Origin: Nitrospirota bacterium | GTDB lineage: Bacteria; Nitrospirota; JACRHJ01 | DNA: 64,000 bases | NCBI GenBank assembly: GCA_049801375.1 | Contig: JBARKJ010000042.1 | Coordinates: 28,703-92,702, forward strand | Direction of reading: 5' to 3' | Part shown: piece after piece, positions 3,082-47,812 of the stretch | Position numbering within the stretch: the stretch's first letter is position 1 | Layout of the letters: each line of letters starts with the position of its first letter | The notes under the pieces: model-generated | Seen by the model: only the letters and a program-made list of their open reading frames with translations | Databases searched by the model: none | What the model was told of the DNA's origin: nothing | Translations under genes and position numbers: made by a program

Positions 3082-4044
3082 ATGAAGATATTCATTGCAG
3101 GGGCAAGCGGCTTTCTGGGTTCGGCCGTAACGAAAGAACTTGCCGACAGAGGGCATAACGTCACCGGTCTGGTCCAGACCGATGAATATAAGTCCATTAA
3201 ACAAAAGGGAGTTAACTATATTAAGGGCGACCTTTTGGAATCAGGGGAGTGGTGCGACAAGATAAGGGAAGCGGATAAGGTAATCAGCCTTATCAACCCG
3301 TTCGATGCCGCCGAAAAAATTCCCAGGGACAAGGTCGAAGCATATTCGAGAAAGCATACCGAAGAGGTGGCAAACCTTATCAAAGCGGCCTCCGACGGCA
3401 ATGCAAAGACGGTCATTGCGACTTTTCATACGGACTGCTATGGCAACCGTCACGGCAAATGGACATCCGATGCCGACGCGGTCGATCCGATCGGGTTCTG
3501 CAGGCCGATTGAAGGCTCACTGAAGGTAGTGGATGAACTGGCGGAGGAAACGGGCCTGAATACGATCAGGGTCTTTCCGGCGATGGTCTACGGAAACGGC
3601 GGATGGTTCAAGGGGCTGATTGAGAACTTGAAGGCGGGTAAGGCGAAGCTCGTAGAGCCTGGCGACAACTACCTGAACCTCATCCACATCGACGACGTAG
3701 CCGGACTATATGCCGAGATAGTCGAGAACGTGAACAACAGCGACGTCTTCACGCTGTCCGACGACAGGCCGGTCACTCAAAGGAACCTGATGAGCCATAT
3801 AACAGCGCTCATGGGCCTGCCGGAGCCGAAGATGGTGGACTTCAACACCTACGCCAAGGAGTTCGGCTGGATTCAGGCTGAGAGCATGTCTTCATCGACG
3901 AGAGTGCCGGGCATTAGGGCCATAGACATGTTCGGCTACGCCATGAAGGCGCGGAGCTATGAACAGGGCGTGTTGATGACCTTAAAATCCATGGGCGTGG
4001 AAGTAAGCGAGGAGGCAATCGAGAAGCTCTTGAAAGCCGCCTGA
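3082..4044 (+). CDS. NAD(P)-dependent epimerase/dehydratase family protein (atypical SDR)
   Basis: 320 aa. The N-terminal Rossmann motif is IAGASGFLGSAV. The RBS gaggagg sits 8 nt upstream of the ATG. Confidence 0.7.
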   Translation: MKIFIAGASGFLGSAVTKELADRGHNVTGLVQTDEYKSIKQKGVNYIKGDLLESGEWCDKIREADKVISLINPFDAAEKIPRDKVEAYSRKHTEEVANLIKAASDGNAKTVIATFHTDCYGNRHGKWTSDADAVDPIGFCRPIEGSLKVVDELAEETGLNTIRVFPAMVYGNGGWFKGLIENLKAGKAKLVEPGDNYLNLIHIDDVAGLYAEIVENVNNSDVFTLSDDRPVTQRNLMSHITALMGLPEPKMVDFNTYAKEFGWIQAESMSSSTRVPGIRAIDMFGYAMKARSYEQGVLMTLKSMGVEVSEEAIEKLLKAA

Positions 4045-4077
4045 AAATGCTTTTTTGAAAAATGCGGGGTGTATTGC

Positions 4078-4614
4078 TTAGAAGAAGCTCTCCGGGACGT
4101 TTATCACGTCGTCCGGCTTGACAGGGTCGCTCATATTGGCGCTCATCGTGGACTCTTGGCCGTCCACCCTGCGAGTTATTTTTGTCCTGCCGGGGGCCGC
4201 TTTATCAGTCAGGCCCCCTGCTAGGGCAATGGCCTTAAGCACAGTCGTATCGGGATCCGCCTTGTACGAGCCGGGTTTTTGTACCTCTCCGGTTACATAA
4301 ACCACGTTCTTCGTCTCAGTGATCAGGATGTTGACATGCGGGTTCCGAATGTAGCCCTTGGACAGTAGATTGGCTATCCTCTTCTCCGCTTGGTGCACGC
4401 TAAGCCCGCCAACATTGGCTTCCCCTATGAGCGGGAAGGTTATTGTACCTTCTGAACTTACTAACGTTTCGGTGGTGAGGTCGTCATTGCCGTAAACGGT
4501 AATCTTCAGGAGGTCACCATTGGAAATGGCGGAGTCCTGCGCCATTCCCGAAATCGGGAACAGGTATAAAAACATTATAGCGAAAGCCATTATGAAGCGG
4601 TATCGTAGTTTCAT
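4078..4614 (-). CDS. Polysaccharide export protein, Wza-like periplasmic (Poly_export/SLBB domains)
   Basis: 178 aa. It has a signal peptide (MKLRYRFIMAFAIMFLYLFPISGMA). The motifs LKITVYG...LSSEGTITFPLIGEANVGGLS and NVVYVTGEVQKPGSY...TVLKAIALAGG are typical of Wza/GumB family exporters. Confidence 0.65.
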   Translation of the reverse strand: MKLRYRFIMAFAIMFLYLFPISGMAQDSAISNGDLLKITVYGNDDLTTETLVSSEGTITFPLIGEANVGGLSVHQAEKRIANLLSKGYIRNPHVNILITETKNVVYVTGEVQKPGSYKADPDTTVLKAIALAGGLTDKAAPGRTKITRRVDGQESTMSANMSDPVKPDDVINVPESFF

Positions 4615-4731
4615 TATGTTTTAAATATATAATGAGATTCATTAGGTTTGTCAAATCCCGTTAATTAAAATTAATTCCGTTTTAATAATTCCTTAATGAA
4701 AACTTGTTATAATAGTACCTAATATCATCAG

Positions 4732-5577
4732 TTGGTCTTAATTTTGAACCTGCTATCTGGGCTGGAAAGGACACCCCCCCCCGTGAAAACCGAAAAAGTT
4801 AAATATGACCCGCCGTCTGAAGTTTCCCCGGATGAGAAGAAATGGGTTGAGCAAGAAAGAAATAACTTTCTGGCCATGGTAACGCATGATTTTAAATCGC
4901 CCCTTACAGTCATGATGGGCTACACCGAGTTGATAGCCACGCATGAAGGTCTGGATAGCAATCTCTCGGAAATGTGCGCTCACATACTAAAGAACGGGGA
5001 AAAGCTGCTGGGAATGGTGGACGATTTCACATTTCATGTAAAACTGCAATCCGGCGTTTTGACACCTGAATTTGCCTCTACAGATTTAAATGCAGTATTA
5101 AAGGAAGTAAAAAAAGAATTCTCTGTCCAGGCTGCTAAAAAGCGCCAGATAATCGAGATGGAGCTTGCAGAAGGCTTCCCATTTGCTTTTCTGGATAGAA
5201 AACTTATTGAAAGAGCGATTGACAACCTTCTGCAAAACGCAATCAATTACACGCCCGAAGGAGGACGGATATCTCTTAAAACCGAATATCACGTAATTGG
5301 GAATCGGAGTTTCCCGGTCATGTCCGTATCGGACACGGGTCCTGGAATACCGCCGGAGCAGATTTCACAGCTTTTTGATATGTATTTTCGTTCTCAAAAT
5401 ACCGGAGGCGTAAGGGGCGCCGGACTGGGGCTTACGATAGTCAAAGCCGTGGCAGAAGCGCACGGCGGGCATGTCGAGGTTGACAGCGAATTAGGAAAGG
5501 GAAGCACATTCTATATCCATCTGCCGTCAGTAGCGGTGGACATGTTCCGCGAGCATAGCGTCACGGCCGCTGTATAA
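4732..5577 (+). CDS. Soluble histidine kinase (HisKA + HATPase_c, no sensor domain)
   Basis: 281 aa. The H-box is VTHDFKSPLTV, the N-box is LLQNAINYT, G1 is DTGPGI and G2 is GAGLGLTIVKAV. No TM segments. Confidence 0.75.
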   Translation: MVLILNLLSGLERTPPPVKTEKVKYDPPSEVSPDEKKWVEQERNNFLAMVTHDFKSPLTVMMGYTELIATHEGLDSNLSEMCAHILKNGEKLLGMVDDFTFHVKLQSGVLTPEFASTDLNAVLKEVKKEFSVQAAKKRQIIEMELAEGFPFAFLDRKLIERAIDNLLQNAINYTPEGGRISLKTEYHVIGNRSFPVMSVSDTGPGIPPEQISQLFDMYFRSQNTGGVRGAGLGLTIVKAVAEAHGGHVEVDSELGKGSTFYIHLPSVAVDMFREHSVTAAV

Positions 5578-5644
5578 CGTTAAAGTTTTAGTTCCATAAA
5601 AATTGCACCACGGTTGTCTCGGTTTTTAGGTGAGTCAAAAAGGG

Positions 5645-7423
5645 TCAAGCCTTCAACATTTCGTGAACCGCGCCGAGAAGTTTCGTAATTTTATAAGGCT
5701 TCTCCAGGATGGCGGTCTTGCCCGGTCCGTTGTTTATTTCCATCAGGTCAATTTCATGGTAACCGCTAAGGAGCAGGATGTTGACGTCTCCCCTTATCCT
5801 TCTGATCTCTTTCGCCGCCTCGTCTCCCCGTACGTGCGGCATAATCAGGTCTAGAATCACGGCAGATATAGTATCTGAATTCTTACCGAAGATTTTGATA
5901 GCCTCTGTCCCGTCCACCGCCGTCAAGACGCTGTAACCCGCGCCCTCAAGCACTTTTTTCGCCATCAACAGCGAGTCTTTTTCATCGTCGGCGAGTAGTA
6001 TAGTGCCCTTGCCGCTCCAGATGTCTTTGGAAATAGGTTTCGCCGCAGCTACTTCCACCGCCTTCGCGGGGACAGGCAGCAGTATTCTGAACGTTGCACC
6101 GCAACCCTCCTCGCTCTCAAGAGCGATGGTCCCGCCGTGCGCGCAGACTATCCCGAAAACTGCCGAAAGCCCAATTCCCCGGCCTGTGAATTTCGTGGTA
6201 AAAAAAGGCTCGAAAATCCTCTTCCGCGTCTCCGGGCTCATGCCGCAGCCTGTGTCCGCGACTTCGACATAAACATATTCCCCCTCGGAGATGCCGTGTT
6301 TGTACAGGCTGTCAAGGTATTTTCGGTCCGCATACATTTTCCCGGTCGAGACCCTTATGCTCCCTTTGCGATCTCCGATTGCGTCCGAGGCGTTGATTAT
6401 AAGGTTCATAACTATCTGTTGCATGCTCTGAGGGTCGGCCATTATTGCAGGAAGGTCTTCCGATAGCCTGAATTCAAGTTCGGCGCTCTTTGTAATCGAG
6501 GCCAGCAGGAAGTGGGCGGTATCGCTTACGACATCGTTTATTTGGACGGGCTCTCTTTTCGCAGGCGCCTTGCTGGTGAAGCTCAGTATCTGTTTGGAGA
6601 AGTTCGTTACTTTATCCGTCGCCTTCTCTATATCGGCCACGTATTCGCGCGCCGGGGAACCGTTAGGGAGCGCATGCAGCGCAAGTCCCGCATTTCCCAT
6701 TACTGCGACCATGAGGTTGTTCAGATCGTGCGCAATCCCGCCAGCCAGCACACGAAGGCTTTCAAGTTTCTGCATTTGAAGCGCCCGTTCCTCCGCGCGT
6801 TTACGCTCTTCGCTCTCGGCCACAAGGGCGGCTGTTCTTTCCTCAACCTTCTTTTCCAGGCTCTCGTTCAGAGATTCCAGTTCCTCCTGGACAGTCTTCA
6901 GCTCGCGGTTCTTCATCACTGCCGTCTCGTATGCGGAAATGAGGAGATCGAGTATCTGTTGACGCTCGGAGTTGATGAAATATTTCTGTCCCTTGAAGAT
7001 TATCTCCACCCCCATCTTCATCTTTGATTCCTTCCTGAGCTCGTCGTTGATCAGGATGTGATGGATCCGCGTGAGCAGATATTTTTCATCGTAGGGTTTC
7101 GTGATAAAGTTGTCGGCCCCGCATTCGAGCCCCCTCAGTATGTCTTCAGGATCGGAAAGGGCTGTCAGGAGAATGACGGGGATTTCCCTGAATCTTTCAT
7201 CCTCCTTGATTTTCCTGCAAAGCTGTAAACCGTCCATCTCCGGCATCATAATATCTGTGATGACGATGGTAGGTTTCCGGTGTTCCATCGCTTCAAGGGC
7301 CTCTCTCCCGTTACGCGCGAGTCGCACACTGTACCCGCCTCTTTCTATGGTGTACTTGAGACCCTCTGCCTGTGTCGGGCTATCTTCGACAATCAGGATT
7401 TCTGGTTTATCTTTACCTGTCAT
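5645..7423 (-). CDS. Hybrid signalling protein REC - coiled coil - HisKA/HATPase - REC
   Basis: Start taken at MTGKDKPEILIVEDS, right after the cheB stop. The N-terminal receiver has D...DIMMPEMDG. The coiled coil is followed by the H-box IAHDLNNLM and the ATPase motifs DTGCGM and GRGIGLSAVFGIV. The C-terminal receiver reads ILLADDE...ILDLIMP. Confidence 0.8.
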   Translation of the reverse strand: MTGKDKPEILIVEDSPTQAEGLKYTIERGGYSVRLARNGREALEAMEHRKPTIVITDIMMPEMDGLQLCRKIKEDERFREIPVILLTALSDPEDILRGLECGADNFITKPYDEKYLLTRIHHILINDELRKESKMKMGVEIIFKGQKYFINSERQQILDLLISAYETAVMKNRELKTVQEELESLNESLEKKVEERTAALVAESEERKRAEERALQMQKLESLRVLAGGIAHDLNNLMVAVMGNAGLALHALPNGSPAREYVADIEKATDKVTNFSKQILSFTSKAPAKREPVQINDVVSDTAHFLLASITKSAELEFRLSEDLPAIMADPQSMQQIVMNLIINASDAIGDRKGSIRVSTGKMYADRKYLDSLYKHGISEGEYVYVEVADTGCGMSPETRKRIFEPFFTTKFTGRGIGLSAVFGIVCAHGGTIALESEEGCGATFRILLPVPAKAVEVAAAKPISKDIWSGKGTILLADDEKDSLLMAKKVLEGAGYSVLTAVDGTEAIKIFGKNSDTISAVILDLIMPHVRGDEAAKEIRRIRGDVNILLLSGYHEIDLMEINNGPGKTAILEKPYKITKLLGAVHEMLKA

Positions 7424-8477
7424 GGTTCTCCTTGTTTCGGGCCAGCGTCTTAAGTGCGGCAATAATTTTATACGGGGGAAGGACGTACGTTGCCGCATCG
7501 AGCTCGACCGCAGCTCCTGGCATTCCGAAAATAAGCGAAGATTCCCTGTCCTGCGCTATCGTCACTGCGCCATTCGACCTCATCAGTTTCAACTCTGCGG
7601 CGCCGTCACTCCCCATGCCGGAGAGCAGGATGCCTACGGCGTTCCTGCCAAATGCCCCCGCTACCGACTGGAAGAGATAGGAGACCGAAGGCCTTGTCCT
7701 GAAGTTCGCATCCCTGTCGTCCAGAAAGGTTCTGCCGTCCGGGCGGACTCCTAAATTAAAGCCGTCTGGAGCGAAGTACGCCCGCCCGGGAAGGAGGATT
7801 TCCCCGCCCGAGGCTATCTGCAAAGGCACGCCGCTTGTTTCGGCCAGCCAATCAACCATTCCGTTTAAGAAGCCGGCCGCGATATGCTGGACTATCAAAA
7901 TCGGAAATGGAAAATCCTTCTGCATGGAATCCAGTATCGATTGTATAACGACAGGCCCGCCGGCAGAGGCGCCTATCGCGACAACGTCAAAGTCCGCAGA
8001 GTCTATTGCCGGATTCATATTGATCACAGGCATATCGAGATATGCTCCCGTTTTTTTATAAGGCCACCGCCTTACGACCTTGACTTCAGACATGAGCTTG
8101 ACCTTAAGGATCATCTCCGCGGCCATTTTATCCGCATCGGGATGTCCGATGCCGGCCGGTCTCTGCAAAATTGTTACGGCGCCCGCCTCCATTGCCTTAA
8201 AAGTGGTCTTTACTTCAGTCGGGTCCCATGCGCCACTCACAATCAATATGGGAAGCGGATTCGTCTCCATGATCCTGCGTGTAGCTTCAAGACCGTCCAT
8301 GACGGGCATGTTGATGTCCATGGTAACCACGTCAGGCTTCAGCCGGACGACAGCTTCCAGTGCCTCTCTTCCGTTGCCTGCCGTGCCGACGACCTCCATA
8401 CCCGGTCCGAAATTCAATATATGGACGAGATACTCCTTAACGACAGGAGAATCTTCGACAACCAGGACTTTTATCAT
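7413..8477 (-). CDS. cheB: Chemotaxis response regulator protein-glutamate methylesterase CheB
   Basis: 354 aa. The N-terminal REC reads VLVVEDSP...DINMPVMDG. The C-terminal methylesterase domain reads VVAIGASAGGP...ILIVQHIAAGF...GMGSDGA. Confidence 0.85.
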   Translation of the reverse strand: MIKVLVVEDSPVVKEYLVHILNFGPGMEVVGTAGNGREALEAVVRLKPDVVTMDINMPVMDGLEATRRIMETNPLPILIVSGAWDPTEVKTTFKAMEAGAVTILQRPAGIGHPDADKMAAEMILKVKLMSEVKVVRRWPYKKTGAYLDMPVINMNPAIDSADFDVVAIGASAGGPVVIQSILDSMQKDFPFPILIVQHIAAGFLNGMVDWLAETSGVPLQIASGGEILLPGRAYFAPDGFNLGVRPDGRTFLDDRDANFRTRPSVSYLFQSVAGAFGRNAVGILLSGMGSDGAAELKLMRSNGAVTIAQDRESSLIFGMPGAAVELDAATYVLPPYKIIAALKTLARNKENHDR

Positions 8478-10741
8478 ATCAGCCTCTTAATCACTTCCAG
8501 AAGGTTAGACTGGTCGAAGCTGCTCTTCACTACATAGGCATTCGCCCCAACGTCGATTCCTCTTTCCCTGTCCTCACGCGATTCGAGGGCTGTCACCAGC
8601 ACTACAGGAATATCTGAAAGCATTTTGTCGGCCCGTATATTCGACGTAAGGTCCAGTCCATTCATTCTCGGCATGTCTATATCCGAGACCACAATCTCGA
8701 ATCGGCCCGTCTTCAAAAAGGTTAATGCGTCTATTCCGTCCACCGCCGTCTGAACATCGTATCCCGCGGCTTCAAGAATATTTTTCAACAGCGTCCGCGC
8801 GGTTATCGAATCCTCAACGACAAGTACGGGCTTTCTCTCTGCCGGCGTTTCCTCCGGAACCGAAGGAGCCTCAATGCCGGGCGATATCCTGACTGCGGAT
8901 TTCAGCAGATCGGATATATTAAGCACGGGCACGACCTCTCCCGTTCCGAGCACTGTTGCACCTGCAATATTACGCACCCTGGCAAGCTGCCTGCCGAGAT
9001 CTTTCACGAGCACTTCCTGCTCATGAAGGATATTGTCGACGCCAAAGGCTATGCGGTTATTAGCCGAGCCAAGCACCGCCGCCTGCATAAATTCCGAACC
9101 GGTCCCGCCTTTTTCCTTGCGCGGCAGTTCCAGTACCAAGCGGAGGGGAATAAGAGGAATTGTCCGGCCTTCAACGGTAATCGTCTCCCTGCTTTCCACG
9201 GTCCTTATTTCATCCCTGCCGACCCTTACCGTGCGGTCAAAGCCTTTAATCGGGATAATAAAACGGCGGTCGTCTATCTGCACGAGGACTCCTCGGAAAG
9301 TTGCAAGGGTCAGAGGCAGAAGGATGCGAAATGTAGTTCCTTTCCCTTCTGTGCTATCGCAGGATATCGAACCGCCCAGCTTTTCCACCTTGTCCTGCAC
9401 AATGGCAAGCCCGAGGCCACGTCCCGAAATATCGGTAATCATCGGGCTTGTCGTCACGCCCGAGTGGAATATGAGGGAAAGCAGCTTTGCCTTGTCCACC
9501 TCGCCCGCTTCCTCCTGCGAAAGAATGCCGAGCCGAACCGCGGAGTTTTTGATTTTTGAGGCGTCCAAGCCTGCTCCGTCGTCCGATACAACGATCTCAA
9601 CCGATTTACCCTCCTTATGAGCGACATCGATTGAGACGGTGCCTGCGGGAGGCTTGTTTATGGCGGTTCGTTCTTGCGGCTTTTCTATTCCGTGGTCGAT
9701 GCAGTTTCGGACAAGATGGATGAGAGGGTCCCGCATTTCATCGAGAATGCGCCGGTCGATCTCGATATCGCCTCCGCGCATTGCGAGCGACGCCTCCTTG
9801 CCCCGGTCATGCGAAAGATCTCGGACGACCTTCGGCATAATTTCAAGAAGCGATGAAAACGGGAGCATCGAGACGGACTTCAAGTCTTCGAGAAGGCTGT
9901 TGGCCATTGTGGCCACAGATCGATTGTCATGCTCCGAAGCCTCGCCGATTGAGACGAGAGTGGCGTGAAGTTTCGCAACGCGTTCACCCTTAGCATCCAA
10001 AAAATCCAGCATCTTCTCCACTTGCGTTCTTTTGCCGCTTAATTCCCCCCAATCTACAATTTTTCGCATTTCGGGCCGGATTTTTTCCCACTCTTTTTTC
10101 AGAGTTGCTGCCTCCGCGATTATTTCATGCAGTTCCGAGATGCGCTGGGCCATCAGCTGCTTTACGGAAAGAAACCCTTCGGCCTGAAGCAGTATGGAAT
10201 CGAGCCTCTGCTTGGATATTCTCATCGTCTCTGATGCTGCCCTCTGGACCGGAGACGCCGCTTCCTCGGAAGAACGATTAGAAAGCTCCGCATGCGTTTC
10301 ATCATCTGCCCGGCTTAGCTTTGGGGGATGCGTTCCTTTTGCCGCTCTGTCAAGCTCATGGATTATGTCTTTAATCCTAGCCTTGCCGGGAGGATGGCCC
10401 TCTTCTCCGATAGAGGATAAAAGGCCTTCAAGTAAATTGACGGAGCTGTGAAGTAGATCCAGCAGTTCCCTGTCGGGCAAAATCTCTTTACGCTTTAGGG
10501 CGGAAAGGGTGCTTTCAAAGGACTGACAAAGGCTTTCAAAAACCGGGAGGTTTACCGCCCGCGCAGCTCCTTTCATGCTGTGGGATTCGCGGAAGACAGC
10601 CTCTATAATCTCCGCTTGCCTCTCAAGGGAAGGCGACTTCTCGATTTCGATTAATCCCGACGAGATCGCGGCGATATGCTCCGCCGCCTCGACCTTGAAT
10701 GTCGCCAGAAGTCTTTTTAAAAATTCGTCGTTTTTATCCAT
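8474..10741 (-). CDS. cheA: Chemotaxis histidine kinase CheA fused to a C-terminal receiver (CheA-CheY hybrid, WspE/FrzE-like)
   Basis: 755 aa. The Hpt domain has the HSMKG phospho-His box. The HATPase_c motifs are DDGAGLD and GRGLGLAIV. A CheW-like domain is followed by a C-terminal REC (VLVVEDS...DIDMPRMNG). Confidence 0.85.
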   Translation of the reverse strand: MDKNDEFLKRLLATFKVEAAEHIAAISSGLIEIEKSPSLERQAEIIEAVFRESHSMKGAARAVNLPVFESLCQSFESTLSALKRKEILPDRELLDLLHSSVNLLEGLLSSIGEEGHPPGKARIKDIIHELDRAAKGTHPPKLSRADDETHAELSNRSSEEAASPVQRAASETMRISKQRLDSILLQAEGFLSVKQLMAQRISELHEIIAEAATLKKEWEKIRPEMRKIVDWGELSGKRTQVEKMLDFLDAKGERVAKLHATLVSIGEASEHDNRSVATMANSLLEDLKSVSMLPFSSLLEIMPKVVRDLSHDRGKEASLAMRGGDIEIDRRILDEMRDPLIHLVRNCIDHGIEKPQERTAINKPPAGTVSIDVAHKEGKSVEIVVSDDGAGLDASKIKNSAVRLGILSQEEAGEVDKAKLLSLIFHSGVTTSPMITDISGRGLGLAIVQDKVEKLGGSISCDSTEGKGTTFRILLPLTLATFRGVLVQIDDRRFIIPIKGFDRTVRVGRDEIRTVESRETITVEGRTIPLIPLRLVLELPRKEKGGTGSEFMQAAVLGSANNRIAFGVDNILHEQEVLVKDLGRQLARVRNIAGATVLGTGEVVPVLNISDLLKSAVRISPGIEAPSVPEETPAERKPVLVVEDSITARTLLKNILEAAGYDVQTAVDGIDALTFLKTGRFEIVVSDIDMPRMNGLDLTSNIRADKMLSDIPVVLVTALESREDRERGIDVGANAYVVKSSFDQSNLLEVIKRLI

Positions 10742-10763
10742 CGGACTTTTTAGATTAAGTTCT

Positions 10764-12398
10764 TTATACCTTAAATTGGTCCACCAGTTGCTTGAGCTTC
10801 TGTCCGAGCTCGTGCAGGCCCCGGGCCGCGGTCTCGGTCTGTCTCGTGCCGGCGACGTTCTGCTCGCTGGCCAGCTTTATATTGTTCATCGCGGTGATGA
10901 CCTGTTCCATGCCCACGAGCTGCTGCTGGCTCGATGCGGCAATCTGCATCCCGGCCTGGGCGGCCTCCGCGATACTTGACTCCAGCGCCTTTATTGATTC
11001 GCCCGCCTGCGCCGATTGCCTAACGCCCTCGTCGACTGTCTTGCTCCCTTGTTCGGTCGCGAGCACGGCTGCGCCCGTCGCCTTTTGTATATCGTTCAGT
11101 ATGGTCCGCACCTGCGTGGTTGCCTGCTTCGACTGCTCGGCCAGGCTCCGCACTTCCTGCGCCACAACTGCGAAACCTTTGCCATGCTCGCCTGCCTTTG
11201 CGGCCTCGATAGAGGCGTTTACCGCAAGGAGGTTTGATTGCTCGGCCAGGTCGTTCACCGTGGAAATGATCTCACCTATCGCCTGGCTCTGCTCGCTCAG
11301 CCTCACGATGCTTTCCGCTATGGATTCCATCTGCTGCCGTATGCGGTTCATTTTCCCCACTGTTTCTTCCATCGCCTTCCCGCCGGTCTGGGAAACCTGC
11401 ACCGCCTTTTTGGCGGCTTCGGAGACATATTCCGCCTTCTGGTTCGAGACCTGAGCGGTCTGTTTGACTTCTTCCACGGTTGTCGTCGTCTCGTTCACCG
11501 CCGTCGCCGTCTCAGTCACGCTGGAGGCGACCTCGGTTGTGGAGGAGAGGATCTCACTGGCCGATGCCGCGAGGACGCTCACAGACTCCTGTATCCCGCG
11601 ATTCACCTCCCGCATGTTCCCGATCATCTTCCTGAATGTCCGCGCGAGATCGCCCACTTCGTCCTTACGGTCAGCGGTAGATACGACGACTGTCAGGTCG
11701 CCGGAAGCTATCTTTTCGGCGGTTTCTGATATCCCCTGCAACGGACCGGCAATAATCCGGCTCAAATAGATTGCAATCGCTGTGCCTATTATAACCACTG
11801 CGATACAGAGTACTGTAAGGATATTTAAATATAGACTCACATTCCGGCTGGATTCGGCTACGGCTGCCTTGGCGTCGCCTTCCGCTCCTACCACAAGCTC
11901 GTCGATAATGGACCCGATCTTTTCATTTCTGTCGGCCTGAATACCGGTCACCACGCCTTTTGCCTCATCGAACTTTCCCGCGAAAACCAATGGCATGACC
12001 TGGTTCTCTCTTGTATCGTTGAACGCCCTCCGTATCTCGTCGAACTCTTTAAGGCGGGCAATATGATTCGGCTCTGTTTCACGTTCGAGGACCTTTTGAA
12101 TCAATTCGTCATTATTCTTCACAAGCTCATCAGCCTTATTGCGTAAGGATGCGAGTTTCTGGGGGTCTTTAAGTACTAACATCGACAGAGTGGTTGACCT
12201 GATACTGTCCTGATTAAACCTGATATCCTGAAGGTCGACCACATTTGCAAATTCCACCTCGGATATTTTTCTTTGCAGGCTCTGCATCTGTTCGAGGTCC
12301 CTGTAAGCCAATACAAAAATAATTAAAAACAGGCCGATCTTGAACCCAAAGCTAAGAAAGAGTTTGGACCGGGTTTTAAGATTGACAAACCAGTTCAT
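10764..12398 (-). CDS. Methyl-accepting chemotaxis protein (two TM segments, periplasmic ligand-binding domain, HAMP, MA domain)
   Basis: 544 aa. TM1 is [10 protein letters not shown] periplasmic region of about 170 aa is followed by TM2 and HAMP. The signalling domain has the conserved tip [40 protein letters not shown]. Confidence 0.8.
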
Positions 12399-12412
12399 TT
12401 TTCCTCCTTGAA

Positions 12413-13042
12413 TTATATTTCTGACGGCTCTCCGTTTATCACGATCTTTTCGTCCGACAGAATTTTTTCGGCATCCAGCACAATCAGGCGGTCCTCCGTG
12501 ACACCCAAAAGATACTCCTCGCGCACGCCCGTAAGCGTGGGAATAACCTGCTGCAGTCCGGCAAGCCGCAGGAGCCGAAAGCCGACGATCACGTCCGCAA
12601 GAACGCCGAATTCCATGGCGTCCGACTTGAGGATGATTACTTTGTTAAAATCGCCTAAGCCTTTCTCGGGGAGTCCGAATAATTTCTTAAGGTCTATTAC
12701 CGAAATGATCTGTCCGCGCACATTGATGATACCAAGGACGAATGGCGGGGTGCACGGAACCGGCGTCAAATCGTTCAGAGGGTACACCTCGCGCACGTGC
12801 GAAGCATCTATGGCGTATCTTTCCTGGGCGAGGAGGAATTCAATGATCTCTATCTCTTCTCCGGCGCCTTTTTTTTCTGGTTCCTTCGCAAGCGCCCGGG
12901 CCCTCTGCCGGAGGATATTCTTCTTTTCTTCAGGACCGGGCACCCATCCCTGTTCGATCACAGACTTGACCCTTTCCAAGCGTTCATGGATTTCATTCCA
13001 GTCGGTGGCCGAGTTAGTGTCGTGTGCCTTTGTGTCATTCAT
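12413..13042 (-). CDS. cheW: CheW-like coupling protein with an N-terminal extension of about 55 aa
   Basis: 209 aa. The CheW core reads [13 protein letters not shown]...[15 protein letters not shown]. It overlaps the cheR stop, so the two are translationally coupled. Confidence 0.75.
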
Positions 13043-14583
13043 GCTATAGATCCCTCAGTCATTGACCTGCTGATAATCTCTACCATCCTCCGCGCTGTAA
13101 TGCCCTCGGACTCCGGAAGGATATTGTCAGGCGGGTATTTTCGCAGGATCGACAGGGCGTTTTCGAAATGCCGCTCGGACTCCCTCTTCATTCCCTTCCG
13201 CCTGGCGAGATTGCCAAGGGCAAAGTGGGCGAGGACAAAGTCCTGATCAAGGTAAAGGGCGCGGTTGAGGCCAATTTTCGATTCGTCTTCCAGCCCCATC
13301 TCAAGCAGAACGGCAGCCAGCAAATATTGATAAGCGGGGTTAAGTTTGCCTGCAGCTATCGCCCTTTCACAAAGTTCGCGAGCCTCTGCGAGCCGTCCCT
13401 GGTTTGCATATATACGTGAAAGAAGCGCCAGCGCGGGAGCGTTTTTGTCAGCGCCGGCTAATAAAGCTGATATTTTCTGCTCTGCTTCCGCATAGCAGCC
13501 CTTTTCAAATAATTTAAGCGCCTCGGCATAAGGGTCTGCATTTTCCCTTGAAAAAGGAGGGACAACGGACGGAGCAGCGTTCAACGTGACTTCTCCTTCA
13601 TCCATTACATCCAAAGGAGGAGTAAAGATATACTCCTCTCCTCCGGCGGGAGCGGACGGCGGCAAGGGGATTTCGCTTATCGTTCTCTCAGTAACAGGAC
13701 AGATTGTGCCCTCGTATTTGAATGCACCTTCCCTTGCAACTTCGTTTTTCCAAAGAGTCGATACTGAAAATTGCGCATGTGATAACGGCAAAGACTGAAG
13801 CGAGGATATTTCTGCCGGACTCACCATTAGCCAGCCGCCTTTTACAAGACAGCGATAAAGTTTTCCGACAACCTTCCTTTGGCTTTTCTCGGTGAAGTAC
13901 ATAAGCACATTTCGGCAAAGTATGACATCCATTCCGTTAGTATTGTTCGTGAGGGACGGATAGGCGTCCTCCGAGAGGTTGAGATAAGAGAAGGTCACCG
14001 CCTTCCGCACCTCGGGGAGCAGCTCAAAAATATCTTTGCCGGACTTTCTGAAAAACTCCTCCTTTACTCCCGAGGGAACATCTCGGAAAGACCATTCACC
14101 GTAAATTCCACTCGCCGCCTTCTGGAGAAAAGAGGCGTTTATGTCGGTCCCGAGGACTGTAATGTTCCAGTCTTTGATATCCGGAATCAGCCTGCGAAGG
14201 AGCATGGCGATTGAATACGGTTCCTCCCCCGTGGCGCAGCCGGCCGACCATATCCGAAGAAACCTTCCAGCCTCGCGTCTCTTCCGGATTATTTCGGGCA
14301 GGATCTCCTCTTCAAGGAGCTTGAAACTTTTTTTGTCGCGGAAAAAATACGTTTCGCCCACAGTGAGCTGGCGCGCCAGAGTCTCGATCTGCTGCTTCGT
14401 CAAAGGAGACAGCAGTAGCCATCTGGCGCATGCCTCCGCGTCCTCGAACCCGAAATCGAGGGCCGCACTCTTTAGGCCCCGCTCCAGGTCGCTCCACCGT
14501 TCCTCCGGAAAATGAAGACCTATCCGTTCAGCTATATAATCGCTAAGCCGGCCAAGAAGCTCTTTGGAGGTTTTTCCGGTCAT
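13039..14583 (-). CDS. cheR: Chemotaxis protein methyltransferase CheR fused to C-terminal TPR repeats (FrzF-like)
   Basis: 514 aa. The N-terminal CheR domain reads YFFRDKKSF...RIWSAGCATGEEPYSIAML...VLCRNVLMYF. The C-terminal 200 aa or so are TPR-like helices (YAEALKLFEKGCYAEAEQ..., LLSRIYANQGRLAEAREL...). Confidence 0.8.
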   Translation of the reverse strand: MTGKTSKELLGRLSDYIAERIGLHFPEERWSDLERGLKSAALDFGFEDAEACARWLLLSPLTKQQIETLARQLTVGETYFFRDKKSFKLLEEEILPEIIRKRREAGRFLRIWSAGCATGEEPYSIAMLLRRLIPDIKDWNITVLGTDINASFLQKAASGIYGEWSFRDVPSGVKEEFFRKSGKDIFELLPEVRKAVTFSYLNLSEDAYPSLTNNTNGMDVILCRNVLMYFTEKSQRKVVGKLYRCLVKGGWLMVSPAEISSLQSLPLSHAQFSVSTLWKNEVAREGAFKYEGTICPVTERTISEIPLPPSAPAGGEEYIFTPPLDVMDEGEVTLNAAPSVVPPFSRENADPYAEALKLFEKGCYAEAEQKISALLAGADKNAPALALLSRIYANQGRLAEARELCERAIAAGKLNPAYQYLLAAVLLEMGLEDESKIGLNRALYLDQDFVLAHFALGNLARRKGMKRESERHFENALSILRKYPPDNILPESEGITARRMVEIISRSMTEGSIA

Positions 14584-15083
14584 TTACCTTGTTCCTTTAA
14601 GGCATCGTTCAGGGCTTTTTCCTCATCGAGAGAAAGGAACCGGTCGAGATCGTGGATAAGGACCATGCCGTCTGCAAGCTTCGCCACGCCTTCAATGTAT
14701 TCCATTTGGGGCATTATGGTCTCAGGGGCTGTAATCCATTCGTCCGGATGTTCAATGACTCCCTCCACATTGTCTGCAATAAGAGCAACCGCCCTCCTCG
14801 CCGTCTGCGCGACGATCAAATGATCGCTCAGGCCAATGTCCCGCTCGGGCAGCCTAAAACGTTTGCGGACATTCACCAGCGGGATAACATTTCCATGCAT
14901 GTTGACTATGCCTGTTACAATATCGGGGGCCTTGGGCAGAGGCGTTGATTCGACTGCGCGGACAACCGTCTGCACGGTGGTAAGGTGAAGCGCATAACGT
15001 TTGTCATCGAGACTAAAGACCAGTAGCAGCACGGATCTTCCCTTGTCAGATTTTTCGTTCTTTGGGTCCTTAAAAAATATCAC
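14580..15083 (-). CDS. cheW: CheW coupling protein
   Basis: 167 aa. The core reads LLLVFSLDDKRYALHLTTVQTVV...GIVNMHGNVIPLVNV. It is the first gene of the che operon. Confidence 0.8.
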   Translation of the reverse strand: MIFFKDPKNEKSDKGRSVLLLVFSLDDKRYALHLTTVQTVVRAVESTPLPKAPDIVTGIVNMHGNVIPLVNVRKRFRLPERDIGLSDHLIVAQTARRAVALIADNVEGVIEHPDEWITAPETIMPQMEYIEGVAKLADGMVLIHDLDRFLSLDEEKALNDALKEQGK

Positions 15084-15366
15084 ATAGATGCTTGAATTTC
15101 AAGGTAAATTACGGGAACTGAATTCTAAACCGTTGTGAACTACTGGCAGTCATAGTTTACTGCGATACTTCCAGAAAGGGTAGCCAGCCCCCGTGCAATT
15201 ATCCCAATACCCGTTACGATTGAAGTCGAGGGGGTCTTCACGCTTTGAAGACTGCGATACGCCGGACGCTTTCCGGCGGAGCAAGTACCAGAGGTGCGAG
15301 ATGGAGGAGCTATACGACCGCGCTGCCGGCGTTGCCTACGTCCACCGCAATGTAGGTGTAAGCCTT

Positions 15367-16059
15367 TTAGAAATTGGATTTAAAACGATAACCGACTCCG
15401 GGCTCGGTAAGGATATAACAAGGGCGGTCCAGATCCGGTTCGAGCTTGTGCCTGAGCTTGCTGATAGTTACGCGCAGGATATGCGGCTGCTCAAGGTATG
15501 TTTCACCCCATATCTGGCTGAGTATTTGGCGGTGCGTGAGCACCTTACCGGCATGAGTGACCAATACCTTCAGCACGTCGTATTCCGTCGGCGTAAGCTG
15601 TAACTCCTTCCCTTTCACGAGAACCCTGCGCTTGGGCAGGTCCACTTCAAGCTCATCAATTTTATATACGGGCGCCGGGGCCTCCTGCACCGAATGCCTC
15701 AAGGCCACGCGCATCCTCGCCAACAGCTCCCCTATGCCAAAAGGTTTCGTAACGTAATCATCTGCCCCGGCGTCGAGGGCGGAAATCTTATCGCTTTCGC
15801 GTTCCCGTACCGTTAGTACGATTACGGGTGTCTTGGCCCACTCACGAAGACGATGTATGACCTCCAAACCGTCCATGTCCGGGAGCCCCAGGTCGAGGAT
15901 GATGAGGTCCGGCCGGAGTTGGGCTGCCGCCGCGAGCGCCTCCTGGCCAGTGCCCGCCTCATGGAGCGAGAACTCCCCCCCGCTAAGCGCGTTCCTCAGA
16001 AAGCGTTGGATGGCCTTCTCGTCGTCTACTATAAGGACTTTCGGCAGGTTCTCGCTCAC
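15367..16059 (-). CDS. kdpE: KDP operon response regulator KdpE (OmpR family)
   Basis: The REC reads VLIVDDEKAI...ILDLGLPDMDG and the winged-helix C-terminus reads LTPTEYDVLKVL...VGYRF. A GTG start at 16059, 10 nt after the kdpD stop, is preferred. The ATG at 16125 would overlap kdpD by 56 nt. Confidence 0.8.
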   Translation of the reverse strand: MSENLPKVLIVDDEKAIQRFLRNALSGGEFSLHEAGTGQEALAAAAQLRPDLIILDLGLPDMDGLEVIHRLREWAKTPVIVLTVRERESDKISALDAGADDYVTKPFGIGELLARMRVALRHSVQEAPAPVYKIDELEVDLPKRRVLVKGKELQLTPTEYDVLKVLVTHAGKVLTHRQILSQIWGETYLEQPHILRVTISKLRHKLEPDLDRPCYILTEPGVGYRFKSNF

Positions 16060-16069
16060 TCGCCTTGCC

Positions 16070-18733
16070 TCACTTTTCCTTCTCAGGTGCCAGAGGAAGC
16101 GCGACTGTAAACTTCGCCCCGCCATCTTTCCTGTTCTCCGCGCGTATCAGCCCGCCATGCGCCTCAACGATGCCCTTGCAGATGGCAAGCCCAAGCCCGG
16201 TGCCGCTGACGCCTTCAGGGCGATGGACGCGGTAGAACTTATCAAAGACACTCTGCAAGTCTTCTTCGGGTATCCCAAGCCCATGGTCGGCCACGGCAAC
16301 CTCCAACATATCCCCTTTTATTCTCGCAGTCAATTCTATATCGGAGTCTACCGGAGAGTATTTGAGGGCGTTGTCCAGGAGGTTGACGAGCACCTGCGTC
16401 ATTAGCACGAAGTCCATCGGCACGAATGGCAGATTTCCAGGGACATTGACGTTAACTTTGGCGCTTGTCAGAAGCCCAAGGGCGGAAAGAGTCGAGCTGA
16501 CCAGATCCTGAACGTCGTTCAGCTCCTTGTGGACCTTTAGCGCGCCGGATTCGATGCGGGTCATGTCGAGCAGGTTCCTGACAAAACGGTTTAGGCGGCC
16601 CGCTTCTCCAAGAGCGGTGTCTATAAGCTCGACTTTAGCATCAAGGTCCAGGCGGCGCCCTTCCTCCTTCAGGCTGCTCAGGGCTCCTGTAATAGAGGCA
16701 AGAGGCGTACGGAGGTCGTGGGATATGGAATTGAGCAGGGACTTTTCCAACTGCTCCGTAGCTTGCATTACTTGCTCTTTACCGGCTTCCTGGGCCATTT
16801 TTCGGCGCTCTATGGCGACCGCGGCCTGATTGGCGAATGCTTCGAGTAACTGGCGCTTTTCAGGGGACAGACCACCCTCTCCAGGGTCTATCCCTATAAC
16901 TCCGACCACATTGCCTGCCGTCTGTAAGGGCACATAGAGCATATTGGAAGACCGGAGCGTGTCCGTAAACCGGCCCGCGGCTTTTCGATGCTCGAATACC
17001 CAAAGCGCCACGGACTTCTCGTTCTCGTCAAGCACTACTCCAGGGCTTGATGCTTTTACATCCAGCCGCCCTTTTTCGGGAAGCAGGATCGCCGTCATCG
17101 AATTAAGATTGCTGCTCACGTGCTGGATTATTACGGCCAGGATTTTTTCAAGGCCTGTTGCGGCAGCCAAATCGCGGCTCAAGGCATAGATGTTGGCTGT
17201 CTGCGCCTCCCTGATGCGAAGCGCCTCAGCTTGATTTCTTGCCCTCGAAACCAGGGTGCTTATGACGGCGCCAACTATCAAGAGCACTGCGAAGGTAATG
17301 AAATACTCGGTGTCCGTCACTGCAAAGGTGAGGTGCGGAGGCACGAAAAAGAAGTCAAAGGCCAATACGCCGATGAGGGCCGTTGCCAGGGAGGGACCAA
17401 GACCGTAACGCAGTGCCGCGAGTACCACGGCCAACAGGTACAACATCACGAGGTTTGTCGGAGAAAGGAACCGGCTTGTAACCTCTCCTATGAGGGTAGC
17501 GGCCGCTACAAGCGCGAGGCTTTTTAAGTAGTCTGGCCAGGACGCCGTTACCTGCGGCATTTCTCTAACGACTTTTTTGTTTTTTCCAGCGGGGGAAGCG
17601 CTCACCACATACACGTCTATCGGCCCGCTTTGCCGTATGACCTTATCTACTACCGCGCCCTTTAAAAGCTCCTGCCACCTTGGTCGAATGGGCCTGCCCA
17701 TTACTATCTTGGTCACGTTGTGCTTTTTCGCGTAATCAATGACCTCTTCAGCCACCTGCGTACCGGTAAGAGTCGCTGTCTTCCCGCCCATGCTCTCCGC
17801 AAGCCTTAAATAGTGCCATACTTTTTCGCGGTTCTCCTGGACAAACTTGTCGCTTCCGGGTGTCTCCACGTAAACCGCGAACCACTCGGCCTTTAACTCG
17901 TCCGCCAGCCTGCGGGTCCTCCTGATAAGCTTTTCGCTGAACGGACTGCCGCTTAAAAGGACAAGGAGCCTCTCTTTAGCGGGCCAGGGGCCGGGAATTG
18001 AGAGGGTCTCCATGTAGGCCCGCATCTGCTCGTCCACCCTATCGGCCGTCCGCCGAAGCGATATCTCGCGAAGAGCCGTCAGGTTCCCTTTTTTGAAGAA
18101 CTTGTCGATCGCCCTCGCAGCCTGCTCTGGGACATAGACCTTCCCCTCCCTGAGACGCTGAAGGAGGTCTTCGGGCGGGATGTCCACGAGCTCGATCTCG
18201 GAGGCTTCGTCAAGCAGGCGGTCCGGGACAGTCTCCCTGACGACGATCTCGGTTATCTGGGCCACGACATCATTCAGGCTCTCCAGGTGCTGGACGTTCA
18301 ATGTCGTATAAACGTCTATTCCCGCGGAAAGCAATTCTTCTACATCCTGGTAACGTTTAAGGTGGCGGGAGCCGGGGGCGTTGGTATGGGCAAGCTCGTC
18401 AACTAAGGCTATTTTCGGTTTGCGCGCAAGAACGGCATCCGTATCCAGCTCAGGCAGAGTAACGCTTTTGTATTCCATCTGCCTTCTCGGGATTATCTCA
18501 AGGCCCTCAAGCATGGCCTCCGTCTCAGTCCTACCGTGGGTCTCGATATATGCGATGACAACGTCTATACCTTCGGCCTTCCGTCGGCGCGCGGCCTCGA
18601 GCATCGCGTAAGTCTTCCCCACGCCGGCGGCATAGCCGAAAAATATCTTAAGCTTGCCCCTCTCTCTGCCTTGTTCCTCGGCTTCGACCCGTGCTAAGAG
18701 GGCGTCGGGGTCTGGACGCGGTTTTTCAACCAT
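16070..18733 (-). CDS. kdpD: Sensor histidine kinase KdpD (KdpD N-terminal domain + Usp + 4 TM + GAF + HisKA/HATPase)
   Basis: 887 aa. The N-terminal P-loop is GYAAGVGKTYAML, followed by a Usp-like domain and a TM cluster. The H-box is ISHDLRTPL and the C-terminal ATPase has GTGLGLAICKGIVE. Confidence 0.85.
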   Translation of the reverse strand: MVEKPRPDPDALLARVEAEEQGRERGKLKIFFGYAAGVGKTYAMLEAARRRKAEGIDVVIAYIETHGRTETEAMLEGLEIIPRRQMEYKSVTLPELDTDAVLARKPKIALVDELAHTNAPGSRHLKRYQDVEELLSAGIDVYTTLNVQHLESLNDVVAQITEIVVRETVPDRLLDEASEIELVDIPPEDLLQRLREGKVYVPEQAARAIDKFFKKGNLTALREISLRRTADRVDEQMRAYMETLSIPGPWPAKERLLVLLSGSPFSEKLIRRTRRLADELKAEWFAVYVETPGSDKFVQENREKVWHYLRLAESMGGKTATLTGTQVAEEVIDYAKKHNVTKIVMGRPIRPRWQELLKGAVVDKVIRQSGPIDVYVVSASPAGKNKKVVREMPQVTASWPDYLKSLALVAAATLIGEVTSRFLSPTNLVMLYLLAVVLAALRYGLGPSLATALIGVLAFDFFFVPPHLTFAVTDTEYFITFAVLLIVGAVISTLVSRARNQAEALRIREAQTANIYALSRDLAAATGLEKILAVIIQHVSSNLNSMTAILLPEKGRLDVKASSPGVVLDENEKSVALWVFEHRKAAGRFTDTLRSSNMLYVPLQTAGNVVGVIGIDPGEGGLSPEKRQLLEAFANQAAVAIERRKMAQEAGKEQVMQATEQLEKSLLNSISHDLRTPLASITGALSSLKEEGRRLDLDAKVELIDTALGEAGRLNRFVRNLLDMTRIESGALKVHKELNDVQDLVSSTLSALGLLTSAKVNVNVPGNLPFVPMDFVLMTQVLVNLLDNALKYSPVDSDIELTARIKGDMLEVAVADHGLGIPEEDLQSVFDKFYRVHRPEGVSGTGLGLAICKGIVEAHGGLIRAENRKDGGAKFTVALPLAPEKEK

Positions 18734-19500: not shown

Positions 19501-19594
19501 CTTTAGTGCCTCCTTTTCGAAATTCAAAACACCACTTCCATCACCTCTGTGATAAATATCTTGTAACCTGAGATATCCGAGTAAATCCCTTAAG

Positions 19595-20629: not shown

Positions 20630-20634
20630 TTTAG

Positions 20635-46265: not shown

Positions 46266-46274
46266 TATGTTCCT

Positions 46275-47812
<1,538 letters not shown>

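Follow-up and report, generated by a model that had tools for sequence, protein, structure and literature searches.

A Wsp-like chemosensory operon of a Nitrospirota bacterium with a Rec-controlled hybrid histidine kinase as its probable output

Introduction

Few "alternative cellular function" (ACF) chemosensory pathways have been studied experimentally, and their outputs are mostly unknown. Here, we analyze a cluster from an uncultured Nitrospirota bacterium that adds an example from this phylum; it comprises seven genes (cheW1, cheR-TPR, cheW2, mcp, cheA-REC, cheB, and a hybrid histidine kinase gene) and its dedicated output is probably the kinase, controlled through an N-terminal receiver (REC). 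The cluster lies in a stretch of 64,000 nucleotides (contig JBARKJ010000042.1 of assembly GCA_049801375.1, positions 28,703 to 92,702 of the forward strand); the whole stretch is referred to as the window, and all positions are those of the window. The original prediction, made from the nucleotide sequence, described a complete, "Frz/Wsp-like", non-flagellar pathway that signals into the hybrid kinase and may control exopolysaccharide or biofilm formation.

The genes of the Wsp system run from wspA to wspR, with the gene for the methyl-accepting chemotaxis protein (MCP) in first position. The Frz system of Myxococcus has a cytoplasmic receptor (FrzCD) that lacks transmembrane (TM) segments, an output with two receivers (FrzZ), and a gene order of its own. 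Clusters encoding CheR fused to TPR repeats are strongly associated with the ACF class; a survey that equated the two reported multidomain regulators, "around 40%" of them with HisKA plus HATPase domains (PMC3447774, Muñoz-Martínez et al. 2012). The Pseudomonas Wsp pathway consists of an MCP with 40 heptads (40H), two CheW proteins, CheR-TPR, CheA-REC, CheB, and one REC-fused output (PMC5907407), and in Burkholderia the receiver-kinase WspH takes the place of the diguanylate cyclase WspR as the output (PMC8552884). Wsp in the strict sense has been reported only in Beta- and Gammaproteobacteria (PMC8552884). The Che3 pathway of Rhodospirillum centenum (CheA3→CheS3→CheY3) serves cyst development rather than motility; CheA3~P phosphorylates REC1 of CheS3, a REC-REC*-PAS-HWE kinase with a degenerate second receiver, and thereby switches CheS3 off, the receiver controlling the kinase rather than taking its phosphate (PMC3868531). 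Phosphorylation of an N-terminal receiver is also the sensory input of LvrB, the prototype of the Rec-controlled kinases, from Leptospira, in which the signaling helices form a coiled coil and the catalytic domains are freed (PMC13269768; PDB 8VC9). LvrB takes its input from the hybrid kinase LvrA rather than from a CheA. CckA-type hybrids (DHp-CA-REC), in turn, feed the Hpt-like protein ChpT.

Results

Organization of the cluster

The seven genes run on the minus strand from 15083 to 5645. All open reading frames (ORFs) were found exactly where the original prediction had placed them, co-oriented and overlapping or nearly abutting, and the Pfam domains agreed, with E-values of 1e-12 to 1e-52 across the seven ORFs except for a weak HisKA match (5e-4); only the start of the kinase gene had to be changed (Table 1). 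The kinase ORF has its 5' end at 7498, and the gene call on the identical public contig begins at M26, which corresponds to 7423. An AAGGAG ribosome-binding site precedes this start, which gives the 11-nt overlap with the cheB stop. From cheW1 to the kinase gene, the junctions measure -4, -4, +14, +22, -4, and -11 nt, the pattern of a translationally coupled operon. We infer the operon from the gene overlaps, because a promoter and terminator scan of positions 3900-16200 was uninformative: the numbers of matches were those of shuffled sequence, and neither internal promoters nor a terminator after the kinase gene could be distinguished. The promoter presumably lies in the 283-nt gap ahead of cheW1, where the consensus promoter scan gave two weak sigma70-like matches (15149-15122 and 15102-15074), a number at chance level. 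Upstream of this gap is the end of a kdpABC-DE locus, and downstream of the operon a sensor-less histidine kinase gene converges from the opposite strand, the two stop codons lying 67 nt apart. At 0.50-0.55, the cluster has a GC content inside the range of the remaining window and gives no compositional sign of horizontal transfer.

Table 1. Positions of the operon features in the window
Feature	Position	Strand	Evidence and remarks
cheW1, coupling protein, 167 aa	14580-15083	-	GTG start; Pfam CheW 1.3e-26; 4-nt overlap with cheR (ATGA)
cheR-TPR, methyltransferase with C-terminal TPR, 514 aa	13039-14583	-	Pfam CheR 2e-50; TPR_2/TPR_19 within residues 350-425
cheW2, second coupling protein, 209 aa	12413-13042	-	Pfam CheW 4.8e-29, residues 66-198; 4-nt overlap with cheR
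mcp, transmembrane chemoreceptor, 544 aa	10764-12398	-	4HB_MCP_1 1.2e-16; HAMP 2e-14; MCPsignal 3.5e-39
cheA-REC, hybrid CheA, 755 aa	8474-10741	-	Hpt 2.7e-12; HATPase_c 1.1e-18; CheW 3.4e-19; Response_reg 1.5e-25
cheB, receiver-methylesterase, 354 aa	7413-8477	-	Response_reg 9.8e-22; CheB_methylest 2e-52
Hybrid Rec-controlled histidine kinase (probable), operon output gene, 592 aa	5645-7423	-	ORF 5645-7498; gene call on identical public contig
Kinase N-terminal receiver, residues 1-132	7028-7423	-	Pfam Response_reg; proposed acceptor of CheA phosphate
Kinase extension, residues 133-215	6779-7027	-	β-hairpin 138-151 and start of long signaling helix; alignment and AF2 model
Kinase DHp and CA, residues 216-452	6068-6778	-	HATPase_c 1.7e-20; weak HisKA; CckA-like core
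Kinase C-terminal receiver, residues 470-592	5648-6016	-	Second Response_reg stretch
Intergenic region, presumed operon promoter	15084-15366	-	283 nt, kdpE stop to cheW1 start; sole sizeable non-coding gap upstream

Motif inspection found the phospho-acceptor and catalytic residues present in all of the cluster proteins. CheA comprises a P1/Hpt domain with His54, P4, P5, and a C-terminal receiver with Asp687; its N, G1, and G2 boxes are present (motifs SHSMKG, containing His54, DDGAGL, GRGLGL, and SDIDMP), and Pfam did not detect a P2 domain. In CheB, the acceptor Asp54 and the Ser171/His198/Asp291 triad are intact, and the protein scores 309.2 bits against an NCBIfam CheB subfamily with a cut-off of 293. 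The receptor gene has an AAGGAGG ribosome-binding site upstream. Its product carries TM-like segments at residues ~12-32 and 191-212, on either side of a periplasmic four-helix-bundle (4HB) sensor. Tip residue Glu404 is exactly 140 residues from both the HAMP end (264) and the C terminus (544), i.e., 20+20 heptads, which makes the receptor a 40H protein; an NCBIfam alignment to the 40H-length CtpM covers it from end to end, and it exceeds E. coli Tar/Tsr-type models by 28 residues, and has no C-terminal tail or pentapeptide. CheW2 has an N-terminal extension of ~60 aa. No CheY, CheZ, CheC, CheD, or CheV was found in the cluster by Pfam.

The output gene encodes a hybrid kinase with two receivers

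The product of the last gene is 100% identical to the NCBI protein "MAG: response regulator [Nitrospirota bacterium]" (MAG, metagenome-assembled genome), which is encoded on a 147.7-kb contig. As predicted, it is a hybrid with receivers on both sides of a kinase core, laid out as REC–coiled-coil–DHp–CA–REC: Pfam found two Response_reg stretches (1.5e-48 in total), HATPase_c, and the weak HisKA match, and the characteristic residues are in place. These are Glu13/Asp14, Asp57, Thr87, and Lys109 in the N-terminal receiver (the last three invariant among 25 che-linked homologues), His232 in the H-box IAHDLNN together with N, G1 (DTGCGM), F, and G2 boxes in DHp and CA, and Asp479/Asp480, Asp525, Ser553, and Lys575 in the C-terminal receiver. 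Residues 133-215 matched no Pfam model at E ≤ 0.001. The kinase lacked Pfam matches to PAS, HWE_HK, and HisKA_2 and has no sensor domain of its own by Pfam.

An AF2 model of the monomer, built from 16 sequences, was used for secondary structure and fold searches only. It predicts a receiver (residues 8-132) with a long α5, a β-hairpin (138-151), and an unbroken helix (152-251) that includes His232, followed by DHp α2, the CA domain, a disordered linker, and the second receiver. In the model, the helix thus joins the receiver side to the DHp domain, as in a Rec-controlled kinase, with the qualification that the hairpin separates it from α5. The best Foldseek match in the PDB was LvrB (8VC9; E 1.4e-19), followed by ZraS, ShkA, and CckA (5idj, 5idm). 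We rejected the assignment as a CckA orthologue: the NCBIfam models gave 300 and 294 bits, far short of their cut-off of 1000, and aligned to DHp-CA-REC alone. The closest PDB match of the N-terminal receiver was a Syntrophus receiver (3GT7, ~58% identity), then PleD; WspR was absent from the 60 best matches, and a likeness of this domain to WspR was rejected. To our knowledge, WspR has no counterpart of the β-hairpin that the model places ahead of the helix.

The cluster is of the Wsp-like ACF type

By similarity to classified relatives (46-48% identity) rather than by class hidden Markov models (HMMs), the cluster appears to be a non-flagellar, Wsp-like chemosensory system of the ACF type. 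Among the best 80 hits, the CheA of Nitrosospira multiformis (784 aa; locus L058) is 46% identical over residues 2-755 and that of Chthoniobacter flavus Ellin428 (L044) is 47% identical. In the rows listed from Table S2 of PMC10782961, NMUL_RS01760 (784 aa), the only CheA of N. multiformis ATCC 25196 among them, is entered as "cheaACF", as are C. flavus CheAs of 754 and 741 aa and a Thermodesulfovibrionales CheA. With its relatives so listed, the CheA would not belong to the flagellar F class. The N. multiformis output recorded in Table S2 of PMC3447774 is REC-GAF-GAF-GGDEF-EAL; locus L035 matches it, and the cluster regulator of L058 has this architecture.

Gene content points the same way. 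A cluster that joins CheR-TPR to a multidomain regulator, a 40H receptor, and a single Hpt domain and that lacks CheY and CheZ has the Wsp/ACF pattern. ACF features seen here are a multidomain regulator without a stand-alone CheY, CheR-TPR, and, within the 37 largest window ORFs, no flagellar or pilus linkage. These ORFs encode kdpABCDE, leu/ilv, other two-component genes and similar, and no flagellar, motor, or pilus gene was found among them. The non-flagellar layout read from the two CheW, CheA-REC, and CheR-TPR genes is borne out, as is the lack of flagellar or motor genes nearby. "Frz/Wsp-like" holds in its Wsp half; the Frz half does not, the receptor being transmembrane with two TM segments and a 4HB sensor.

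A conserved receiver module follows cheB in related clusters

GTDB was scanned with the CheA as query, one genome per species, and the best 80 loci (40-69% identity) were retained; their ORFs were called mechanically and compared by BLAST with the window proteins. The closest CheA among the species representatives in these best 80 is that of a Thermodesulfovibrionales MAG (69%). The order CheW-CheR(TPR)-CheW-MCP-CheA(REC)-CheB-X, where X is the output position, is kept in most of the 80 loci, the place of cheR-TPR included. Its hosts belong to Nitrospirota, Acidobacteriota, Verrucomicrobiota, Bacteroidota, Desulfobacterota, Planctomycetota, Nitrosomonadaceae, and Methanoperedens and include the cultured C. 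flavus Ellin428 and isolates of Nitrosospira and Nitrosovibrio. Because the same order recurs in most of 80 genomes from different species, the gene arrangement, as judged by this comparison, is far beyond chance. We regard the cluster as genuine and complete, and as probably functional.

cheB follows cheA in 73 of the 80 loci, and in 69 of the 73 the next same-strand ORF is complete. This ORF opens with a receiver like that of the window kinase in 62 of the 69 complete cases, at 100-170 bits compared with 25-75 bits for other receivers. When the first 230 residues were aligned, conservation passed the end of the receiver (~125), ran to ~190, and then collapsed. The extension follows the consensus G.EI.F.GQKhFItS.R.QILDLLlSTYE.AV..N.EL..(EL)..N..LE and is kept in 64 che-linked outputs whatever the effector. 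Within the window, the full module occurs only in the hybrid kinase (330 bits); the next match, the CheA receiver (104 bits), covers the receiver part alone. An 82% orthologue of the kinase (P0002) and a 45% homologue with the REC-HK-REC architecture and an identical seven-gene layout (P0099; HK, histidine kinase) both lie behind cheB. Of the 120 best database homologues, 97 had the module, and many of these also had inserted PAS domains or one more receiver.

In an independent test that picked loci by their output and not by CheA, the module alignment (A1) served as the query against JGI metagenome contigs, and the best 80 loci were retained. Matches to the full module, extension included, came from 37 loci, 34 of them evaluable; cheB was directly upstream in 21, and 8 more were in che clusters at another position, for a che-linked total of 29/34. 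Matches to the receiver alone came from 43 loci (37 evaluable), of which 34 of the 37 had no adjoining cheB; two of the three exceptions were matches clipped by a contig end. The receiver-only loci thus mostly lack cheB whereas the full-module loci are mostly che-linked, so that the extension is a marker of che-linked outputs.

Pairwise divergence of the module parallels that of CheA (Pearson 0.71, Spearman 0.51; 40 sequences, from 39 loci plus the window), whereas that of the kinase core in the same 40 sequences does not (Spearman 0.09 against CheA); these correlations are confounded by shared ancestry and show co-inheritance, not contact. Because its divergence keeps pace with that of CheA and it occurs mostly in che clusters, the ~190-aa module is the probable target of CheA. 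The predicted signaling of CheA into the N-terminal receiver of the kinase is strengthened by the 62/69 linkage, the co-divergence, and the independent module search, all of them comparisons of sequences.

Three archaeal MAGs of ANME-2d (anaerobic methanotrophic archaea)/Methanoperedens (L005, L007, and L008) carry the whole cluster with the module; their CheAs, matched at about 4832-7159, 10001-12163, and 10001-12184, respectively, are 52-54% identical to that of the window. These copies suggest that the complete cassette was transferred between domains, or else mis-binning. At another pair of loci (L166/L167, 6297-12993), three hybrid kinases in tandem (786, 760, and 561 aa) come after the che cluster, and the 760-aa protein (P0085) has the full N-terminal module; genes for a group II intron reverse transcriptase and a recombinase lie beyond them, suggesting output multiplication and mobile-element activity at this position. 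In a further subfamily (P0028, P0040, P0042, P0058, and ~35 other homologues), an additional receiver precedes the module, which then starts at about residue 131, and many members match PF20161; the hosts are Planctomycetota, Brocadiales, Nitrospira, and "Deltaproteobacteria".

Effectors behind the module and origin of the window kinase

Domain assignments of the outputs come from a Pfam scan of 20 related outputs, the remainder having been classified by similarity. A kinase is the majority effector, found in 42 of the 62 module-bearing outputs. In 25 loci it is a HisKA/HATPase kinase with no further receiver; 11 have a kinase with one C-terminal receiver, the layout of the window (C. flavus is among them, and two add an Hpt domain), 5 a kinase with two or three receivers and Hpt, and 1 (L003, a Nitrospirae MAG) a GAF-HisKA_2/HWE kinase. 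The other outputs are GAF-GGDEF-EAL (Nitrosospira and relatives), GGDEF, PAS-GGDEF, PP2C, HD-GYP-type HD_5, PAS only, or a near-bare module. The view of a kinase output as an unusual alternative to GGDEF or sigma54 outputs therefore finds no support, given these counts, the share of about 40% in the CheR-TPR survey (PMC3447774), and the precedents of CheS3 (PMC3868531) and WspH (PMC8552884).

The closest relative among the related outputs (L002) is a REC-HisKA-HATPase protein of 460 aa that has no C-terminal receiver. Residues 9-~212 of the window kinase are ~70% identical to it; past ~212, identity drops sharply, and the kinase domains are only about 23-25% identical. Residues 206-592, in turn, are 78% identical, without a gap, to P0010, whose N terminus gives no match. 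P0010 is a REC-PAS-PAS-kinase-REC protein of 768 aa encoded at 1433-3739 of L083; sequencing run SRR28023895 yielded both L083 and L001, the latter a locus of the same organism as the window. P0010 is not che-linked, and a single-domain receiver gene precedes it. Judged by these alignments, the window kinase is a chimera in which the che-linked receiver part (residues 1–~212) is joined to the core of a PAS-kinase paralogue, and P0010 likely represents the donor lineage of that core. The recombination junction falls within the helix (residues ~206-218), 15-25 residues ahead of the phospho-histidine. The orthologue P0002 shares the fused architecture and the cheB linkage; the exchange therefore predates the split between it and the window protein. 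The expectation that the hybrid kinase co-occurs with the che cluster in relatives accordingly stood in part: the close orthologue keeps the protein whole, whereas the nearest species-level relatives keep only the N-terminal module and have a different kinase core.

Discussion

Comparison with described systems

The window operon is a typical member of a widespread and already catalogued class in which kinase outputs are the commonest and experimental precedents exist. Compared with the ACF/CheR-TPR clusters of the Wuichet & Zhulin classification, which it resembles in CheR-TPR, CheA-REC, two CheW proteins, one dedicated MCP, and a REC-kinase regulator, nothing essential differs; the window adds the Nitrospirota case and a kinase with an extra C-terminal receiver. 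The operon has the protein set of Pseudomonas Wsp and, like Burkholderia with WspH, a receiver-kinase output. It is not a Wsp system in the strict sense, although it works like one: its output has no GGDEF domain, its MCP gene is fourth and not first, and its host belongs to the Nitrospirota. Nor is it a Frz system, the receptor having 4HB_MCP_1, two TM-like segments, and HAMP, and the output being a kinase.

With R. centenum Che3, the operon shares a CheA-REC and a second kinase with a phosphorylatable N-terminal receiver. Unlike CheS3, the window kinase runs from REC through a hairpin and coiled coil into a HisKA/CckA-like core, has no PAS domain, and carries its acceptor receiver fused at the C terminus, in a cluster without a stand-alone CheY. 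With LvrB it shares the N-terminal receiver, signaling helix, DHp, and CA. In LvrB, α5 passes straight into the signaling helix αS, whereas the window kinase has the conserved β-hairpin in between, a helix of ~80 residues up to the phospho-histidine, and the C-terminal receiver in addition. CckA-type hybrids share the best NCBIfam similarity (~300 bits), the H-box IAHDLNN, and the Foldseek matches to CckA; by comparison, the window kinase lacks TM segments and PAS domains, has a receiver as its input, and has no ChpT-like or Hpt partner in the window.

Proposed signaling and competing explanations

We consider it likely that this is an ACF-class (Wsp-like) operon with the Rec-controlled hybrid histidine kinase as its dedicated output, and the comparative evidence supports the predicted non-flagellar pathway that relays into a kinase. 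The signaling that we infer would run as follows. The 40H transmembrane receptor with its periplasmic 4HB sensor, two CheW proteins, and CheA-REC would assemble into a signaling complex, with methylation-based adaptation through CheR-TPR and CheB. CheA would autophosphorylate at His54 and hand this phosphoryl group on to Asp57 in the kinase's N-terminal receiver; it would also phosphorylate Asp54 of CheB and its own Asp687, the latter probably a sink or regulator. Phosphorylation of Asp57 would act through the β-hairpin and the long coiled-coil helix on the DHp helix with His232 and turn autokinase activity on or off. His232 would in turn donate its phosphoryl group to Asp525 of the fused C-terminal receiver, from which it would probably pass to an Hpt protein and a response regulator encoded elsewhere. 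Such an onward relay is supported by an Hpt domain fused after HK-REC in seven related outputs and by a stand-alone receiver gene after REC-HK in at least six loci, as in CheS3/CheY3.

Several observations weigh against this reading. The class rests on similarity to relatives that are themselves classified, not on MiST models, and the CheA-REC fusion alone is not discriminating, occurring also in the F3, F5, and type IV pilus (Tfp) classes. Precedents for the sign of the regulation are opposite: receiver phosphorylation activates LvrB and inhibits CheS3. An HMM from the seven fused Hpt domains, run against the 442 stop-to-stop frames in the window with 60 or more codons, matched only P1 of CheA. 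The AF2 model is of modest quality (mean pLDDT 74, pTM 0.38). Finally, five of the 34 evaluable full-module loci in the metagenomes had no che gene within 6 kb, and the module-bearing homologue P0078 is an orphan in a two-component-rich region, so that the module is not strictly che-bound.

The proposed control of exopolysaccharide export or biofilm through the genes next to the operon is unlikely. It drew on a Wza-like Poly_export+SLBB protein (178 aa, 4078-4614) on the strand of the operon and on the sensor-less HisKA-HATPase kinase (4732-5577, plus strand) that converges with it, and several characterized ACF systems (Wsp, WspH, and R. centenum Che3) do affect matrix or exine polysaccharide. 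Among ~165 related loci, however, the Wza-like gene, the orphan kinase, and an epimerase gene flanked none except L001, from the same organism (kdpDE and HlyD likewise gave none), and we set the hypothesis aside because these flanking genes are not conserved. Downstream of the 82% orthologue the genes are unrelated (CbiD and Mg-chelatase fragments, another REC-HK). The Wza-like gene is also cut off from the operon by an opposite-strand gene, its product scores under all NCBIfam exporter cut-offs, and no glycosyltransferase, Wzx, Wzy, or Wzc gene lies beside it. Somewhat less probable still is that the N-terminal receiver mainly acts as a phosphate sink or competitor, the kinase core taking other inputs and the true output being the CheA receiver or an unlinked regulator. 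CheA does bear an intact receiver, CheA3 of R. centenum and CheAY2 of H. pylori have tethered receivers that serve as sinks, and position X is receiver-only or REC-PAS (253-403 aa) in five loci (L005, L007, L040, L066, and L070). A pure sink, however, would not need a conserved hairpin-helix extension that runs unbroken into the effector; 42 of the 62 outputs retain an intact kinase, the rest keep enzymatic effectors (GGDEF/EAL, PP2C, HD-GYP) on the same module, and the window kinase core has no sensor domain of its own.

A motility pathway, flagellar (F class) or for type IV pili, with motor genes beyond the window is very improbable. The 64-kb view of the genome and the CheA-REC fusions of the F3, F5, and Tfp classes leave some room for it, whereas the cluster holds no CheY, CheZ, CheC, CheD, CheV, motor, or pilus gene; CheR-TPR with a multidomain response regulator is the ACF signature (PMC3447774), the Nitrosospira and Chthoniobacter relatives are classed as ACF, and the single Hpt domain is unlike the typical multi-Hpt Tfp CheAs. 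We give hardly any credence to the kinase being an unrelated two-component gene that came to lie next to cheB by accident. CckA-like hybrid kinase paralogues are very abundant in the lineage and some module-bearing homologues are orphans, but the gene overlaps cheB, in 62 of 69 species cheB is directly followed by the N-terminal module, whose divergence parallels that of CheA, and the orthologue has the same linkage.

Under the preferred reading of a CheA-controlled kinase output, what is new is modest: as far as the alignments go, a conserved receiver-hairpin-helix module and a clear domain swap at the signaling helix. Current views are not overturned, as catalogues have included kinase outputs since 2012 and phosphotransfer from a CheA to a kinase was shown in 2013. 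The ~190-aa module could serve as a search handle for the outputs of such pathways, unlinked ones included, and the effector swap at a defined point of the helix is a natural template for rewiring Rec-controlled kinases. More tentatively, and more probably wrong than right, the module may be a dedicated "ACF output adaptor" that coevolves with CheA across bacterial phyla and ANME archaea and whose effectors are recombined within the coiled coil, the window protein being a recent chimera; if so, this protein would catch an adaptor–effector exchange in the act.

Other observations in the window

The convergent orphan kinase downstream of the operon has only HisKA and HATPase_c domains, with no sensor or TM domain detected. 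Further two-component genes on the minus strand encode a sigma54-dependent REC-AAA-HTH regulator and its kinase (31611-34548) and a HAMP-kinase (27842-29245); no link between these and the che operon was seen. Within the kdp locus, a 300-aa ORF between kdpC and kdpD (18751-19653, minus strand) gave no Pfam match, and two ORFs of 499 and 407 aa (45762-47261, plus strand, and 55443-56666, minus strand), amid leu/ilv and fatty-acid synthesis genes, had none at E ≤ 1e-5. The kdpC ORF (19595-20887, minus strand) is over-long at 430 aa, is matched by KdpC in two stretches, and overlaps kdpB by ~250 nt.

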